Below are positions 3,013 to 8,647 of a stretch of 64,000 nt of DNA, in pieces. The first letter of the stretch is position 1, and each line of letters opens with the position of its first letter. The DNA is taken from the NCBI GenBank assembly GCA_963702005.1, contig OY969696.1:1664001-1728000 (forward strand), read 5' to 3'. Made by a program: the position numbers and the translations under genes. Below the pieces are notes generated by a model. That model saw only the letters and a program-made list of their open reading frames with translations, did not search any database and was not told the origin of the DNA. Origin of the DNA: Candidatus Aminicenantes bacterium. Its GTDB lineage: Bacteria; Acidobacteriota; Aminicenantia; Aminicenantales; JAFGBC01.

Positions 3013-4251
3013 ATGTCCGCCGATAAGCTTCGGGGCATCCAAGACTTATGGGAGAGACACGCCCGGCAGGACCCCCTCTGGGCCATCCTGTCCGACCCCG
3101 CCAAGAAAGGCCGGAAATGGGGGTTGGCCGAGTTTTTCGAGACGGGGCGGCGCGAAATCTCAATCCTTCTTTATCGGCTGGAGAGCCTGGCCATTCTTTT
3201 CGGCAGGGAAGGGGCGCTCGATTTTGGCTGCGGCATCGGCCGCCTGACGTTGGCGCTGGCGCCTCACTTTGAGCGGGTGGCCGGCGTCGACGTCTCGGAG
3301 ACCATGATCCGACTCGCCGAGAAGTTCAACCGGTTTCCGGACAAGGTCCGCTACCATGTCAATCCGGAAGCCCACCTGAAAATTTTCCCGGACGAGACTT
3401 TCGACTTCGTCTACACGAACATCGTCCTTCAACACATCCAGCCGGAGTTGTCTTTGGCCTACCTGGGAGAATTTCTCAGGGTCCTGCGGCCCGAAGGGCT
3501 CCTGGTCTTCCAAGTGCCGTCTCACCTCCGCGACAAGAGCTCCCTGCCCCTCGACGTCGGGCCGATGAGCGACGCGGCCTATGCCTCCGCAATCAGGCTG
3601 GAGGATGTGCCGGCGGCGCCGCTCAAGCCGTCCGCCGAGTTCGTCCTCAAGGTCTACATCCGGAACGCGAGCCGCGAGGACTGGGTCCGGAACGAGGCGG
3701 CCCCGATCCGCGCCGGCAACCATTGGCTGACGCGGGACGGAGAGACCATGCTCATCCAGGACGACGGCCGGACGCTCTTGCCGAGGGTTCTCGCCGCCGG
3801 CGATGAATGCCTCGTCTATTTGGCCGTCCGGGCGCCCGGCCGGCCGGGCGTGTATCTCTGCGAGGTGGATCTCGCCCATGAGTCCATATCCTGGTTCAAG
3901 GACAAGGGCGCCGCGGCCGTCCGCTTCCCCGTCGAGATCGGGGGAGACGATAGCCGGGCGATCGACCGGGCGTCGCTGCCTTCCGGAACTCAAGATCTTT
4001 TTGATCTCACGCCGTTCCCATCTTCGTCCCCCGACGAGGCCGCCCTCGGGGCGCTGGACGAACTCTATCGAGAAGAACCGGGCGCGGCCCCTGAACCCGG
4101 GGATTTTCCGATGCACGGCATCCCCAAGGACCGAGTCGTGGATTTTCTGGTTTCGAAGGGGGCTTTCATCATTCGCATCGAAGAGGACGAACACGGAGGC
4201 CGGGAGTGGGTCGGCTTCCGGTATTTCGTCCGCCGTCGTTCGGCCGATTGA
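3013..4251 (+). CDS. class I SAM-dependent methyltransferase with an inserted Ig-like domain
   Basis: motif I ALDFGCGIGR, GVDVSETM, FDFVYTNIVLQH, RVLRPEG. Confidence 0.85.
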   Translation: MSADKLRGIQDLWERHARQDPLWAILSDPAKKGRKWGLAEFFETGRREISILLYRLESLAILFGREGALDFGCGIGRLTLALAPHFERVAGVDVSETMIRLAEKFNRFPDKVRYHVNPEAHLKIFPDETFDFVYTNIVLQHIQPELSLAYLGEFLRVLRPEGLLVFQVPSHLRDKSSLPLDVGPMSDAAYASAIRLEDVPAAPLKPSAEFVLKVYIRNASREDWVRNEAAPIRAGNHWLTRDGETMLIQDDGRTLLPRVLAAGDECLVYLAVRAPGRPGVYLCEVDLAHESISWFKDKGAAAVRFPVEIGGDDSRAIDRASLPSGTQDLFDLTPFPSSSPDEAALGALDELYREEPGAAPEPGDFPMHGIPKDRVVDFLVSKGAFIIRIEEDEHGGREWVGFRYFVRRRSAD

Positions 4252-4468: not shown

Positions 4469-6886
4469 TCACCGAGAGCGGGCCCGGTTTTTCTTCCAGC
4501 GGAGGCGCTGGGCTATCCCCATTAAAATGTAGAGCGGGCCGTATAAGCCGGCCGCGACGGCCGTGGCCCCGATGTTGCCGCCCTGGAGGAGCGAAACCCA
4601 CAGCCCGAACTGCTGGTCGCTGATGAGGTAGGTCCAGGTCGAGGATGGCCCGCGCAGGCCCATTCGGTCCAGGTCGAGCCGGTCCGGATCGGCGGGAAGC
4701 GATCGGAATGATCTCAGGATTCCGGTTTCGATCTTGGGCTCCAGCTTGACGAATTCCTCGTTGGCGATCCTTTGGAATTCGGCGATCGGAGACCGTCCCC
4801 CCACGCTCTCCAGGTGGATGCCCTCGCGGACATAGGCCAGGACGGCCAAGTGCTCCATCCAGGCGCGGTCGATCTCGCGGAGGGCGATCCGCCGCTCGAT
4901 CTCGGCCCAGGCGTCCGGAGTCATCCGTGAGCGATGGCCAGCCCCGATCCGGCGGACTTTGGCCTCCAGCGGATCCGGCAATCCGTCACCGCCCAGGATC
5001 TCCTCGCGCCAGCCCTGGATGATTTGGCGCTGCTTCTCAATAAGGTAGGCGTATTTCCAGAGGGTTTTGCGGATTTCGAAGTTTTGACCCTCGATGATCC
5101 GCTGGCCCCGAGCGATCTCGCGGGCGACCAGGGGATTTTCAAGCGGGCCATTCCGCCGTAGCGAGCGAAGGCTTTTGGGCAGGAGGTTCCGGAGACCGTA
5201 CTTCTCGACGAGCGGATCTTCGAGGCTGACGAAAAAGCGGGACGAACCGGGATCGCCTTGGCGCCCCGCCCGCCCCCGGAGCTGCCGGTCGATCCGCAGG
5301 TTTTCGTGCCGGTTCGTGCCGATGACGTAAAGGCCGCCCCTGCCGACGACCTTGTCCCGCTCCTGCTCTTTGTCTCCGCCGAGTTTAATGTCAGTCCCCC
5401 GGCCGGCCATGTTCGTCGAAATGGTCACGGCGCCGGGGCGGCCCGCCTGGGCGATGATCTCGGCCTCGAGCTCGTCGTTCTTGGCGTTGAGGACCCGGCA
5501 GTCGATGTCTTTCCCCTGCAGGGCGGCCGCCAGCTCCTCGGACTCCTTGATGCTGGCCGTGCCGACCAGGACCGGCCGGCCGACGGCATGCAGGCATCCG
5601 ATCTCCTCGATCAGGGCCTCGGCCTTGGCCGCCTTGTGCGTGAAGACCGCGTCCGGCAGATCCTTCCGGATGCAGGGACGGTGCGGGGGAATGACGACGG
5701 TCCTCAGCCCGTAGAACTCGTGGATCTCGCCGGCGGCGCTTTGCGCGGTTGCGGTCATTCCGCCGACCTTGGGGTAGAGGCGGATGAAGTGCTGAAGGGT
5801 GATCGAGCCCAGGATGGATCCGCCAGCGCCCGGCCCGAGCCGTTCCTTGGCCTCGACCGCGGCCTGGAGGCCGTCGGGCCAGTGGCGGTCTTCGACGACG
5901 CGGCCCGTGAATTCGTCGACGATCTCGGCCTTTCCGTCGCGGACGATATAGTCCACGTCGCGCCGCAGGAGATACTCGGCATGGAGGGCCTGATGAACGC
6001 CGGTCAGGATATCGATGGCCCCGGGCGCGTGGAGGTCCAGACCGCCCAGCCTGCCCTCGATTCTCCCCAAACCCTGGTCGGTCAGGACAAGGTTGCGCTC
6101 CCCTTCGTCCGTCTCGAAGTCGAGGCCGGACCGGAGCCCTTTGACGACCTCGGCCAATCCGACCGGGACGGCCGTCTCCGCCTCCAGCCGGCCGGCGATG
6201 ACGAGCGGGACGCGGGCCTCGTCGATGAGGATGGAATCGGCTTCGTCGACGACCGCGCAATGAAACGGCCTTTGGACGAGGTCGGCCCGGGCGTAGCAGA
6301 GATGATCGCGGAGGTAATCGAAGCCGGCCTCCTTGGCCGTCGCGTAGGTGATGTCCGAAGCGTAAGCCCTTTTCCGGTCCGTCTGAGGCATCCCTTCCTG
6401 TACGCAGCCGACGCTCAGGCCAAGGAATTCGTAGATGGGCCCCATCCAGGCGGCATCCCGGCGGGCCAGGTAATCGTTGAAGGTCAGGATGTGGACCCCT
6501 CGTCCGGTCAGAGCGTTTAGGGCGCCCGGAAAGACCGCGGCCAGCGTTTTACCCTCGCCGGTGTTCATCTCGACGACGCGGCCTTGATGAAGGGCGATCC
6601 CGGCCATGACCTGCTCGTCGAACGGCTTGAGCCCGATTCTCCGCCAGGCCGCTTCCCGGACGAGGCCGAACGCCTCGACCAAGAGAACGTCCGCAGCCTC
6701 GCCTCGGCAGGCCCGCTCCCTCAACCGCGCCGCTCTTTCTTGAAGCTCGCCGTCCGCCGAGCGGCCGAAGTCGAGGCGGCCGATCGCCGCCAGCGTTTTT
6801 CGATAGCCGGCCAGATCATATTGAATGGGAATGCCGCGCGTCCTGTTCCAGAAATCCTTAATCCGGGTCTTGGCGGGTAAAATCAT
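4469..6886 (-). CDS. secA2: accessory protein translocase ATPase SecA2
   Basis: MNTGEGKT Walker A, VDEADSILIDEARVPLVI, STNMAGRGTDIKLG, QLRGRAGRQGDPG; short, no C-terminal Zn finger, GPSSTWTYL tail; SD GGAGAGGAG 5 nt before ATG 6886. Confidence 0.88.
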   Translation of the reverse strand: MILPAKTRIKDFWNRTRGIPIQYDLAGYRKTLAAIGRLDFGRSADGELQERAARLRERACRGEAADVLLVEAFGLVREAAWRRIGLKPFDEQVMAGIALHQGRVVEMNTGEGKTLAAVFPGALNALTGRGVHILTFNDYLARRDAAWMGPIYEFLGLSVGCVQEGMPQTDRKRAYASDITYATAKEAGFDYLRDHLCYARADLVQRPFHCAVVDEADSILIDEARVPLVIAGRLEAETAVPVGLAEVVKGLRSGLDFETDEGERNLVLTDQGLGRIEGRLGGLDLHAPGAIDILTGVHQALHAEYLLRRDVDYIVRDGKAEIVDEFTGRVVEDRHWPDGLQAAVEAKERLGPGAGGSILGSITLQHFIRLYPKVGGMTATAQSAAGEIHEFYGLRTVVIPPHRPCIRKDLPDAVFTHKAAKAEALIEEIGCLHAVGRPVLVGTASIKESEELAAALQGKDIDCRVLNAKNDELEAEIIAQAGRPGAVTISTNMAGRGTDIKLGGDKEQERDKVVGRGGLYVIGTNRHENLRIDRQLRGRAGRQGDPGSSRFFVSLEDPLVEKYGLRNLLPKSLRSLRRNGPLENPLVAREIARGQRIIEGQNFEIRKTLWKYAYLIEKQRQIIQGWREEILGGDGLPDPLEAKVRRIGAGHRSRMTPDAWAEIERRIALREIDRAWMEHLAVLAYVREGIHLESVGGRSPIAEFQRIANEEFVKLEPKIETGILRSFRSLPADPDRLDLDRMGLRGPSSTWTYLISDQQFGLWVSLLQGGNIGATAVAAGLYGPLYILMGIAQRLRWKKNRARSR

Positions 6887-6891
6887 CTTGA

Positions 6892-6960
6892 CTCCTCTCC
6901 GGTTCATAAACCCGATGACGATTCGAACAGACTTCAGGGGAAATAGTTAGAGGAGAGGAG
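6892..6960 (-). promoter_or_regulatory. anti-SD/SD pairing able to occlude the secA2 ribosome-binding site
   Basis: mRNA CUCCUCUCC (6960-6952, inside the leader ORF's Pro-Pro-Leu-Leu codons) is the exact reverse complement of GGAGAGGAG (6900-6892). Confidence 0.7.
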
Positions 6961-7189
6961 GGCTTCTGGGCGAGGTAGTTCCCAGAACGTATTGCGGGAC
7001 TAAAAAAGAGCGTCGCTTGGATGAAACGGGCGCGCCGGCAAGATTTATGCTAAGAACCCATACCAAAAGCAAGAGCAGGGGAGGGACGATCAGCCCGACG
7101 AGGAACAGAAGCGGCAGCCAGAGGGCCAAGAACCCCCCCCGATCGGGCGCGGTCATTTTCGTCCAAGCCGTCCGGGATGTTTCGATCAT
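6947..7189 (-). CDS. candidate secA2 leader / ribosome-arrest peptide (hydrophobic segment plus C-terminal RSPP)
   Basis: 80-aa ORF with a long hydrophobic stretch, ending GTTSPRSPPLL*, 60 nt upstream of secA2 and behind a consensus promoter. Confidence 0.7.
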   Translation of the reverse strand: MIETSRTAWTKMTAPDRGGFLALWLPLLFLVGLIVPPLLLLLVWVLSINLAGAPVSSKRRSFLVPQYVLGTTSPRSPPLL

Positions 7190-7219
7190 TATTTACGGCG
7201 TTTCCTGCTTCAAGAGGAA

Positions 7220-7248
7220 ATAATAAGCCGCCGCCTCGGCGTTGTCAA
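7220..7248 (-). promoter_or_regulatory. sigma70 promoter for leader ORF-secA2
   Basis: TTGACA (7248-7243)-N17-TATTAT (7225-7220). Confidence 0.65.
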
Positions 7249-7360
7249 TGAACGGGGGAGCCGAGATCTCGTCGCCGCCGCGAAGCCGGAGGCTGAGCCT
7301 CGGTTCCATTTGCGGCGGCCCCGCCTTCCGGGGTATGATCTTCCTGAAAAGGAGGACGCC

Positions 7361-8647
7361 ATGCCCACCCGAAAGCGGCTTCTCGTTTTCATCGCCGTTC
7401 TCACCTTAACTTTCGTTTTGGCCGCCGCGGCGGATTTTCCTCAAGGAAATTCCCGGGAGCTCGGATTCGACCCGGTACGGCTGGGGCGGGTTGACGCCCT
7501 GTTCGAAGGATTCATCGCCCAGGGGAAGCTCTCCGGCGCCGTCGCCCTCGTCTTGAAGGACGGCAAAGCCGTTCTTTATAAATCCTACGGCAAGATGGAC
7601 CGGGAGGCCGGGATTCCCATGCCCAAGGACGCCGTCTTCCGGATCGCCTCTATGTCAAAAGCCCTGACCGCGGCTGCGGTCATGATACTTTACGAGGAGG
7701 GCCGATTCCTCCTCCAGGACCCCGTCGTTAAATTTATCCCGGAATTCGCCGAGCCATCCGTGGCCGTGCCCCTTCCGGTCGGCGTTCAATCCGCGGCCAA
7801 ATACTACCTGGAAAAAGCGCATCGGCCCATGACCATCCATCAGCTTTTGACCCATACCTCGGGCTTAACCTACGGCTACGACATCTCCCAGGACGCTTGG
7901 AAGGAAGCGGGCATCCAGGGCTGGTACCTGGCGGCCCGTAATGAGACCATCGGCGACGTCGTCAAACGGATGGCCAAGCTCCCCCTCGACGGCCACCCCG
8001 GCGAGAAATGGCTCTACGGCTATTCGTCCGACGTCCTGGGATATCTCGTCGAGGTTGCCTCGGGGATGCCGTTCGACCGCTTCTTGGAGGAGCGCCTCTT
8101 TAGGCCGCTCCGGATGACCGACACATCCTTCTGGATGACCAACGGCAAGGCCGCCCGCTTCGCGCCCGTCTACGGCCTTTCCCCGGAGGGCGTCCTGACC
8201 AAGAACGAGGACAACGCCAAGACCGATTACCTCAAAGGCCCCAAGAAGTGTCTCTCGGGGGGAGCCGGGATCCTGTCGACGGCCGTCGATTACGGCCGAT
8301 TCCTCCAGATGCTCCTTAACGGCGGGGTCCTCGACGGCGTCCGCGTCCTCAGCCCCAAGTCGGTGGAGCTCATGCATGTCAACGCGACACGCGACCTCTA
8401 CCGCCGCGACGGCTGGGGACGGGGGGAGACCTTCGGATTGGGCTTCTGGGTCAGGGAGGATATCGGGACCTACGGCGAGCTCGGCTCGAAAGGAGCCTTC
8501 GGCTGGGGGTCGGCCTATTATCCCATCTACTGGGTCGATCCCGAGCAAAGGCTGGTCGGCCTGTTCATGACGCAGCTCATGCCGGCCGCGGATCTTCCCC
8601 TCAGCCGGCAGTTCCCGGTCATGGTCTACCAGGCCCTGGTCCGCTGA
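7361..8647 (+). CDS. secreted serine hydrolase, beta-lactamase class C-like family
   Basis: FRIASMSK (SxxK), LLTHTSGL, PGEKWLYG; GGAGG SD before ATG 7361; signal peptide. Confidence 0.9.
   Translation: MPTRKRLLVFIAVLTLTFVLAAAADFPQGNSRELGFDPVRLGRVDALFEGFIAQGKLSGAVALVLKDGKAVLYKSYGKMDREAGIPMPKDAVFRIASMSKALTAAAVMILYEEGRFLLQDPVVKFIPEFAEPSVAVPLPVGVQSAAKYYLEKAHRPMTIHQLLTHTSGLTYGYDISQDAWKEAGIQGWYLAARNETIGDVVKRMAKLPLDGHPGEKWLYGYSSDVLGYLVEVASGMPFDRFLEERLFRPLRMTDTSFWMTNGKAARFAPVYGLSPEGVLTKNEDNAKTDYLKGPKKCLSGGAGILSTAVDYGRFLQMLLNGGVLDGVRVLSPKSVELMHVNATRDLYRRDGWGRGETFGLGFWVREDIGTYGELGSKGAFGWGSAYYPIYWVDPEQRLVGLFMTQLMPAADLPLSRQFPVMVYQALVR

Follow-up and report, generated by a model that had tools for sequence, protein, structure and literature searches.

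Does the small open reading frame (ORF) that precedes secA2 in an Aminicenantes bacterium encode a translation-arrest peptide, and does this peptide control the synthesis of the accessory SecA behind it? The question is raised by a stretch of 64,000 nucleotides from Candidatus Aminicenantes bacterium (assembly GCA_963702005.1, contig OY969696.1, positions 1,664,001 to 1,728,000), here called the window, in which an ORF of 80 codons, the leader (uORF), lies directly upstream of secA2 on the minus strand. An initial annotation of the sequence had proposed that a ribosome pausing at the end of this ORF switches on secA2 in the manner of the arrest peptides SecM and MifM. Comparative tests support the arrest-peptide interpretation, although they do not demonstrate it. 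That the leader is real, translated and conserved, with an RxPP motif under selection, appears almost certain. To the further-reaching reading, in which the leader regulates secA2 translation by arrest-dependent unmasking of the Shine-Dalgarno sequence (SD), we would assign, from the sequence comparisons, a probability of about 0.7.

The leader and the secA2 gene

The leader occupies positions 6947..7189 of the window (minus strand, as all elements below unless stated otherwise). Its full translation of 80 aa is MIETSRTAWTKMTAPDRGGFLALWLPLLFLVGLIVPPLLLLLVWVLSINLAGAPVSSKRRSFLVPQYVLGTTSPRSPPLL, with TSPRSPPLL as the C-terminus. The hydrophobic stretch of about 30 aa and the spacer of about 25 aa described in the initial annotation are both recovered: a hydropathy window places the hydrophobic segment at residues 19-48 (30 aa, 7046..7135), and about 26 residues lie between it and R75. 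The codons AGA AGC CCT CCT of R75-S76-P77-P78 (6956..6967) constitute the presumed stall site. The leader stop TAA at 6949-6947 is separated by a gap of 60 nt from the start of secA2, the ATG at 6886, which is common to the congener and was preferred to the ATG at 6907. The SD of secA2, GGAGAGGAG (6892..6900), is found 5 nt before this ATG. A perfect complementarity of 9 nt between the SD and the Pro-Pro-Leu-Leu codons had also been claimed, and indeed CTCCTCTCC at 6960..6952, inside the codons of P77-P78-L79-L80, is the exact complement of the SD at 6900..6892. This anti-SD, CUCCUCUCC within codons 77-80 (6952..6960), pairs with the SD in the minimum free energy (MFE) fold as well as in the centroid fold.

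The gene behind the leader (4469..6886, 805 aa) has the SecA Pfam domains and scores 807 bits on the NCBIfam model TIGR04221 SecA2_Mycobac (cut-off 725), below the cut-offs for canonical SecA. The same genome (4.31 Mb, one contig) has a separate canonical SecA of 912 aa, with 1246 bits on NF009538 (cut-off 814). By family score the downstream gene is a SecA2-type paralogue. Its product is 85% identical to the closest related record, and the closest records are labelled Candidatus Aminicenantes. Past the end of the TIGR04221 match, SecA2 has a moderately hydrophobic stretch at residues 771-792 (NIGATAVAAGLYGPLYILMGIA, window 4511-4576), followed by a polybasic tail. This hydrophobic and polybasic C-terminus is kept in orthologues, the hydropathy over 19 residues exceeding 1.6 in 21 of 26, and the hydrophobic stretch may be a C-terminal membrane anchor.

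Conservation of the leader in the Aminicenantes

From the order we sampled 151 genomes, 55 of which have a SecA2 above the model cut-off. The upstream DNA was read at all 55 secA2 loci; L042 has no upstream DNA, which leaves 54 usable loci. At 51 of these, a co-oriented small ORF with a hydrophobic segment and RxPP is located upstream of secA2. Fifty are intact, and one (L030, G124:C69) is frameshifted, with the hydrophobic segment in one frame and the tail RSPPF* in another. If the leader were functional, the initial annotation had argued, a transmembrane (TM) segment and RxPP should be conserved upstream of orthologous secA2 genes, and this is what is found. The intact leaders are 61-104 codons long (143 in L044 if the first start codon is used). 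The motif is most often RSPP (35 of 51), followed by RGPP (9), RAPP (6) and RDPP (1). It lies 1, 2, 3 or 6 codons from the stop in 26, 10, 12 and 3 loci, respectively, and hence within 1-3 codons in 48 of the 51.

Outside the motif the sequences have diverged widely. In a protein alignment of 50 leaders the mean column identity is 25%, and no column is invariant except those of R, P and P (50/50). The Arg codons of RxPP belong to two codon families (AGA 17, CGC 15, CGA 12, CGG 7), and the Pro codons vary too. Furthermore, the proportion of nonsynonymous differences is smaller than that of synonymous ones (pN<pS) in all 82 leader pairs of 50-97% identity, with ratios of 0.23-0.96. Together, the varied Arg and Pro codons and the ratios indicate that the peptide itself is under selection, beyond the DNA. 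At the second position of the motif, Ser is always encoded by AGC or AGU (35/35), never by UCN, and the variants Gly (GGC/GGU), Ala (GCC) and Asp (GAU) are interconvertible by single-base steps. This codon pattern suggests a motif of shared descent and not repeated invention within the order.

The possibility of a chance ORF was considered with all small ORFs of 40-150 aa in the six frames of this genome. Of these 21,044 ORFs, a TM-like window is present in 181, and R[SAGD]PP falls within the last 11 residues of 38. The two features coincide in a single ORF, the leader, against an expectation of 0.33. A chance ORF was therefore rejected, on the grounds of this sole occurrence, of the conservation at 51 of 54 loci and of pN<pS in 82 of 82 pairs.

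The divergence of the leaders is also apparent from similarity searches. When the 80-aa peptide was used as a single query against its own genome and 40 relatives, the congener was the sole convincing match (E 1e-24); two matches adjoining secA2, in G011 (E 0.013) and G010 (E 3.5), are too weak alone. A profile search of a large protein collection returned at least 200 clusters at E<=0.001. Among the 120 clusters listed none has a Pfam domain, those with a name are all called 'hypothetical protein', and the organisms named are Aminicenantes or Acidobacteriota. In one further relative with a single contig (L188, G023:C1, 1000-3706) the leader is intact, with 78 aa and the ending ...RSPPLAG*, and secA2 is split in three frames (239, 416 and 161 aa), either by decay or by assembly indels. 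Because its secA2 is split, this genome is not counted in the SecA2 census.

A hydrophobic, uncharged core is recognized by hydropathy alone in 50 of 50 leaders and comprises 25-42 aa (median 31.5). It contains a conserved F-P-P-L, which is V-P-P-L in the window leader (7076..7087) and in which the Leu is present in 47 of 50. The codons of F-P-P-L vary freely, thus selection acts on the amino acid. At the presumed stall, P77 would be in the peptidyl (P) site and P78 in the aminoacyl (A) site of the ribosome, an assignment that is borrowed from RAPP (PMC10951233, PMC12992588). From the core end to the P-site Pro there are 15-32 residues (median 25), a value that depends on where the end of the segment is set. 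From the conserved Leu to the P-site Pro the distance is 39, 40 or 41 residues, in 25, 17 and 8 of the 50 peptides, and the part N-terminal of this Leu varies between 18 and 57 residues. The start of the hydrophobic segment is 58 residues away from the stall point in the window leader and 53-60 residues across the family.

Predicted pairing of the secA2 Shine-Dalgarno sequence with the leader

In 43 of the 51 loci, 43-66 nt separate the stop codon of the leader from the secA2 start. In the MFE folds of these 43 segments, the SD mostly pairs with a pyrimidine tract, for which there are two alternative locations. In the first layout the tract is located in the Pro-Pro and following codons (CCUCCUUU and similar); in the second it begins at the stop codon or immediately behind it (UGACCUCCUC and similar). 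The initial annotation had assumed that a paused ribosome covers the anti-SD. This applies in full to the Pro-Pro layout alone; in approximately half of the relatives the anti-SD starts directly after the stop. Sequestration of the SD is predicted in 41 of 43 loci (unpaired probability <0.2; the mean for shuffled sequences is 0.13).

The predicted pairing is specific with regard to position and partner. A 24-nt window at the stall site beats all non-overlapping leader windows as a partner of the SD in 21 of 43 loci, with 51-134 alternatives in each, where we estimate that about 0.7 such loci are expected; its mean energy with the SD is -15.8 kcal/mol versus -10.0 for other leader windows. The duplexes of each locus' own stall site and SD have a mean of -17.1 kcal/mol, compared to -14.0 when the partners are swapped between loci, and 0 of 5000 permutations reach the observed value. 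For a flank test the helix was anchored on the 5-bp core CCUCC:GGAGG alone, in 35 loci. The two positions beyond the core are paired in 29/35 and 27/35, versus 23.7 and 20.3 expected. At the second of them U-A (13) alternates with C-G (12), and its 27 pairs were reached in 0 of 5000 permutations; the mean contiguous extension of the helix is 2.66 versus 1.54 expected (0/5000). Covariation of the anti-SD with the SD, which had been named as a check of the initial proposal, is thereby borne out: position specificity, partner swap and flank covariation all support the helix. In the congener (G001) the promoter hexamers, the SD and RSPP are kept and the Pro-Pro anti-SD is lost (CCG CCU); its own stall window still pairs well with the SD.

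It had likewise been suggested to fold the region around the leader end. Here, the SD/anti-SD pair appears in both folds, as described above, and the folding energy of the whole segment 6870-6990 is ordinary (z = -1.10; 29 of 200 shuffles fold at least as well). The RNA signal is in which bases pair, not in the total stability. Two further observations concern the same region. Between anti-SD and SD a small nested hairpin is seen in L033, L034, L037, L038, L040, L139 and L145, and in L152, L153 and L155, for example UGAUUCUC...GAGAAUC or GACGAUCUCUUGAUCGUC; it begins at the stop codon and is kept within families. In several loci the codons of F-P-P-L-L (e.g. 90-160 nt upstream of the stall site; L144, L140, L154, L051) are a partner of the SD equal to or better than the stall window. 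This region is possibly a second anti-SD, or else a by-product of CU-rich codons.

The motif is also unusual in its codon usage. The rare CCU is found in 30 of 54 Pro-Pro codons, versus 7.6 expected from the codon usage of the neighbouring secA2, and AGA in 11 of 27 Arg positions versus 2.1 expected. Together with the invariant Pro-Pro core, this enrichment of rare codons would suit a sensor of proline translation capacity, that is of the activity of elongation factor P (EF-P) or of the supply of Pro-tRNA and not of insertion, in which slow Pro-Pro bond formation sets the output of secA2. However, the CCUCC of the anti-SD explains the CCU enrichment equally well, the conserved hydrophobic segment and its fixed distance would be left unexplained, and RAPP/RGPP arrests are reportedly refractory to EF-P (PMC12992588). 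We consider such a sensor very improbable.

Another explanation starts from the peptide. The leader may encode a small membrane protein that is stable and cooperates with SecA2, for instance as a membrane receptor or partner of its hydrophobic C-terminal tail, with RxPP as a protein-protein motif. The conservation of F-P-P-L (Leu in 47/50), which goes beyond the need of a mere targeting signal, the purifying selection throughout the peptide and the conserved hydrophobic and polybasic C-terminus of the SecA2 orthologues (21/26) are all in line with this. But neither the anti-SD at the motif or stop, nor its flank covariation with the SD, nor the CCU enrichment, nor the position of the motif 1-3 codons from the stop would then find an explanation, and as a replacement for arrest we regard this role as improbable. 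It is compatible with an arrest function.

Predicted opening of the Shine-Dalgarno sequence

If arrest unmasks the SD, a ribosome at the stall site should open the helix. This was modelled with a partition function, as the unpaired probability of the SD core. The leading edge of the ribosome was assumed at +12, +15 or +18, and everything 5' of it was also masked. For the free leader the mean unpaired probability of the SD is 0.03, and a ribosome placed 10 codons upstream of the stall site gives 0.02. With the P site on the first Pro it is predicted to rise to 0.14, 0.19 and 0.26 for the three edges. At the window locus the corresponding change is from 0.00 in the free leader to 0.25 with a ribosome at P77. 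In the model, the opening of the SD is specific to the last few codons, but it is partial in silico, and the folding model cannot separate a long stall from ordinary termination.

Several results weigh against arrest-dependent unmasking, and some of them are just what plain translational coupling would produce. According to this alternative, each terminating ribosome melts the anti-SD/SD helix and secA2 simply follows leader translation, with no regulated arrest or sensing; Pro-Pro would merely lengthen the dwell near the stop. With a terminating ribosome the unpaired probability is 0.31, so that the SD is opened no less than by a ribosome at Pro-Pro (0.14-0.26). When only the footprint is masked, the mean at Pro-Pro is 0.12, again a partial opening, and none of the 43 loci exceeds a probability of 0.5; masking of the 5' side as well brings at most 2 of 43 above this value. 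In 16 of the 35 anchored loci the anti-SD is found right after the stop codon. Counted from the first base of the P-site codon it starts after 12 or 15 nt, at or beyond the leading edge of the stalled ribosome. The short and constant distance from stop to start would suit coupling as well. Yet under coupling there is no need for the Arg, three residues ahead of the second Pro, to be invariant, or for the hydrophobic segment to keep a fixed distance of 39-41 residues. In addition, RxPP has been shown to arrest ribosomes where it occurs in other leaders (PMC10987492, PMC10951233), and among the ORFs of this genome with 300 aa or more (a rough set, with shadow frames included) R[SAGD]PP is about half as frequent as expected. 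Coupling as the whole explanation therefore seems improbable to us, if a little less so than a membrane protein without arrest.

There are further adverse points. The leader ORF is missing at 3 of the 54 secA2 loci (L032, L052, L142). Related genomes are not independent, so that the permutation counts given above overstate significance. RNAalifold found no consensus structure when 42 of the 43 leader 3' segments (L045 omitted) were aligned with MAFFT; in this alignment the anti-SD stands in two registers and the SD columns are unaligned, and the duplex and anchored-flank tests were used instead. Lysine plus arginine is balanced about the hydrophobic core (2.2 on the N side versus 2.1 on the C side), hence the topology is not readable from the charges. 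Finally, RSPP arrests less well than RAPP in ApdA/ApdP (PMC7897499, PMC12992588), yet it is the majority form here.

Relation to known arrest peptides

RAPP-like arrest peptides are scattered patchily across bacteria upstream of secA, secDF and yidC. Fujiwara et al. 2024 (PMC10987492) screened 30,175 genomes for small unannotated ORFs upstream of these genes, with a signal at the N-terminus, a C-terminus that is conserved and a spacer exceeding 30 residues; RSPP was among the query motifs. Their 'RQH family' of RAPP-like leaders is found in nine phyla and comprises 19 order-level groups, 8 of which are upstream of secA. Ribosomes stall on RAPP-like uORFs located ahead of secA or secDF, and in one case secDF is induced by way of an SD-masking stem (PMC10987492). 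The RSPP and RDPP variants of ApdA/ApdP keep partial arrest, and such motifs are depleted from proteomes (PMC7897499, PMC12992588).

The initial annotation had not recognized the leader family, a statement that has to be revised, as the family fits this published class, with RSPP as a query motif there (PMC10987492). The leader is a small ORF without annotated function, located directly upstream of a secA homologue and co-oriented with it. By hydropathy an N-terminal hydrophobic segment is present in 50 of 50 leaders, and the conserved C-terminal motif is RSPP, RGPP, RAPP or RDPP in 51 of 51. With respect to a spacer of more than 30 residues, the result depends on the definition of the segment end: the median is 25 from the core end, and 39-41 residues follow the conserved Leu. 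With three of the four screening features present, the leader fits as a member of the RAPP-like, Sec-associated class.

The closest counterparts are the uA_RQH groups, which are also small unannotated co-oriented ORFs directly upstream of a secA homologue, with a hydrophobic N-terminal signal and a C-terminal RxPP that is conserved within one order, and with little other similarity (PMC10987492). The leader differs from them in its target, which is here the SecA2 paralogue and not the housekeeping SecA, in its short and nearly invariant spacer, and in the majority motif, RSPP instead of RAPP or RGPP. Leaders of secA and secDF have long, variable spacers; short and constant spacers have been tied to the insertion-dependent release of N-out/C-in segments, as in MifM with a median of 54 (PMC10987492).

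The leader is not assigned to SecM, MifM or ApdA/ApdP. Like SecM (E. coli secM-secA), it precedes a secA gene and combines an export signal at the N-terminus with a C-terminal arrest motif whose last residue is Pro. An SD-sequestering stem, which the stalled ribosome opens in SecM (PMC10987492), is predicted here too, with partial opening in the model. In contrast to SecM, FxxxxWIxxxxGIRAGP is absent, no Pfam family matches at E<=0.01 and the leader ends in TSPRSPPLL; the SecM spacers have medians of 71 or 131.5 residues (PMC10987492), and SecM has a cleavable signal peptide where a hydrophobic segment of about 30 residues is found here. MifM (B. subtilis mifM-yidC2) is alike in its N-terminal TM segment, the short, narrowly distributed distance to the arrest site and the SD-masking stem, which is predicted in our family. 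However, its target is yidC2 and not a SecA, its motif RIxxWIxxxxxMNxxxxDEED (PMC12992588) is absent here, and its median spacer is 54 residues (PMC10987492), versus 25 from the end of the hydrophobic core in our family. The ApdA/ApdP leaders of secDF have RAPP, which also 6 of the 51 Aminicenantes relatives carry; they differ in their location upstream of secDF, in Actinobacteriota and Alphaproteobacteria (PMC10987492), and are set apart by description, not by sequence homology.

The main text of PMC10987492, which names 6 of the 8 secA groups, mentions neither Aminicenantes nor Acidobacteriota; its supplementary list may already hold the family. The main texts on arrest peptides that were searched, supplements not covered, contain no link to SecA2, to accessory or paralogous SecA, to Aminicenantes or to Acidobacteriota. 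An apparent 'secA2' in PMC10987492 and PMC10951299 was rejected, since it is 'secA' plus a reference superscript.

Occurrence in other Acidobacteriota

The search was extended to a phylum-wide sample of 301 genomes, in which SecA2 is above the cut-off in 16. Beyond the order, the leader family recurs in a single genome of the same class (L173, ending in RAPPF*). At two loci from other classes of the Acidobacteriota, L163 and L165, a SecA2 that passes the cut-off is preceded by a hydrophobic leader that is unrelated to the family and has RAPP, at a distance from the stop of 12 residues and 1 residue, respectively. At nine above-cut-off SecA2 loci of this sample (L160-L162, L164, L166-L170) no such leader was found, and there is no such ORF at the closest secA2-like loci labelled as other phyla or belonging to farther Acidobacteriota (L062, L064-L068, L108).

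Terriglobia-type records have a signal-peptide leader of about 90 aa with RAPP (L070, L071, L078) or QRPP (L084, L086) near the stop. The gene behind it encodes a SecA paralogue of about 705 aa (704 and 706 in L070 and L084), which is below every NCBIfam cut-off for SecA or SecA2, and the N-terminal parts of these leaders are unrelated to those of the Aminicenantes family. Thus, RAPP-like leaders ahead of second SecA genes appear to recur in Acidobacteriota with differing N-terminal parts.

Promoter and neighbouring genes

The consensus promoter TTGACA-N17-TATTAT that the initial annotation had placed upstream of the leader is present at 7248..7220 (feature 7220..7248). It is sigma-70-like and matches 11 of 12 consensus positions; one site was seen versus 0.2 expected in shuffled sequences, and it is kept in the congener amid diverged flanking sequence. 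The neighbouring genes encode a beta-lactamase-family serine hydrolase, divergent, at 7310-8647 on the plus strand, and an S-adenosylmethionine (SAM)-dependent methyltransferase, convergent, at 3013-4251 on the plus strand. Because these flanking genes are divergent and convergent, leader and secA2 make up a two-gene unit without other adjoining secretion genes. Transcription attenuation was rejected as the main mode of control, as there is no terminator-like minus-strand site between 6947 and 6886; the two such sites found are at 7241-7229 and 7370-7354.

Proposed mechanism

In the mechanism that we propose, promoter, leader ORF and secA2 would form one two-gene transcription unit, and the leader would act as a RAPP-like translation-arrest peptide. 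In the free mRNA the SD of secA2 is predicted to be locked in a helix with the anti-SD in the Pro-Pro-Leu-Leu codons. A ribosome stalled at RSPP would take the anti-SD inside, the SD would be freed and SecA2 could be made. At this moment, the hydrophobic segment would be emerging from the exit tunnel. Once the segment engages the insertion or targeting machinery, the chain would be pulled, the stall would end and the hairpin would reclose, by analogy with SecM, MifM and VemP. If the stall is released by insertion, SecA2 synthesis should rise when insertion of the leader is slow. For this step, release by membrane insertion, we see the chances as about even; only the fixed distance of 39-41 residues speaks for a length-tuned release.

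Candidates for the machinery that is monitored are the signal recognition particle (SRP) with SecYEG, YidC, or SecA2 itself. The last candidate would result in an autoregulatory loop, in which SecA2 recognizes and pulls the nascent leader segment and so releases the stall, with the leader as a dedicated SecA2 substrate. SecA proteins bind ribosomes near the exit. The distance of 39-41 residues would put F-P-P-L at the mouth of the exit tunnel exactly upon the stall at RSPP. We hold this loop to be a tentative and rather unlikely extension of the arrest mechanism.

Significance

With this locus a large, order-wide leader family of the Aminicenantes is added to the RAPP-like arrest peptides, with at least 200 database clusters. 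The switch would be of a known type, found in a lineage new to it and acting on an accessory SecA. Its unusual traits are the SecA2-type target, the preference of RSPP over RAPP and RGPP, and the near-invariant distance of 39-41 residues from the conserved motif to the stall. Should the family already be catalogued in the supplement of PMC10987492, what remains new is that its target is a SecA2, that the distance is fixed and that the anti-SD has two layouts.

If arrest-dependent unmasking is true, the leader would be a compact natural force sensor of 61-80 residues. Its two anti-SD layouts, which are interchangeable, would make it useful for work on the coupling between arrest and the unmasking of an SD. 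If in addition the autoregulatory loop is true, an accessory SecA2 would for the first time be described under the control of an arrest peptide, in a circuit that combines a MifM-like length tuning with a SecA target and would give a handle on the recognition of substrates by SecA2 in an uncultured phylum. For the organisms themselves, which are unculturable, a leader that regulates secA2 in this way would provide a functional clue to when the accessory SecA2 is needed.

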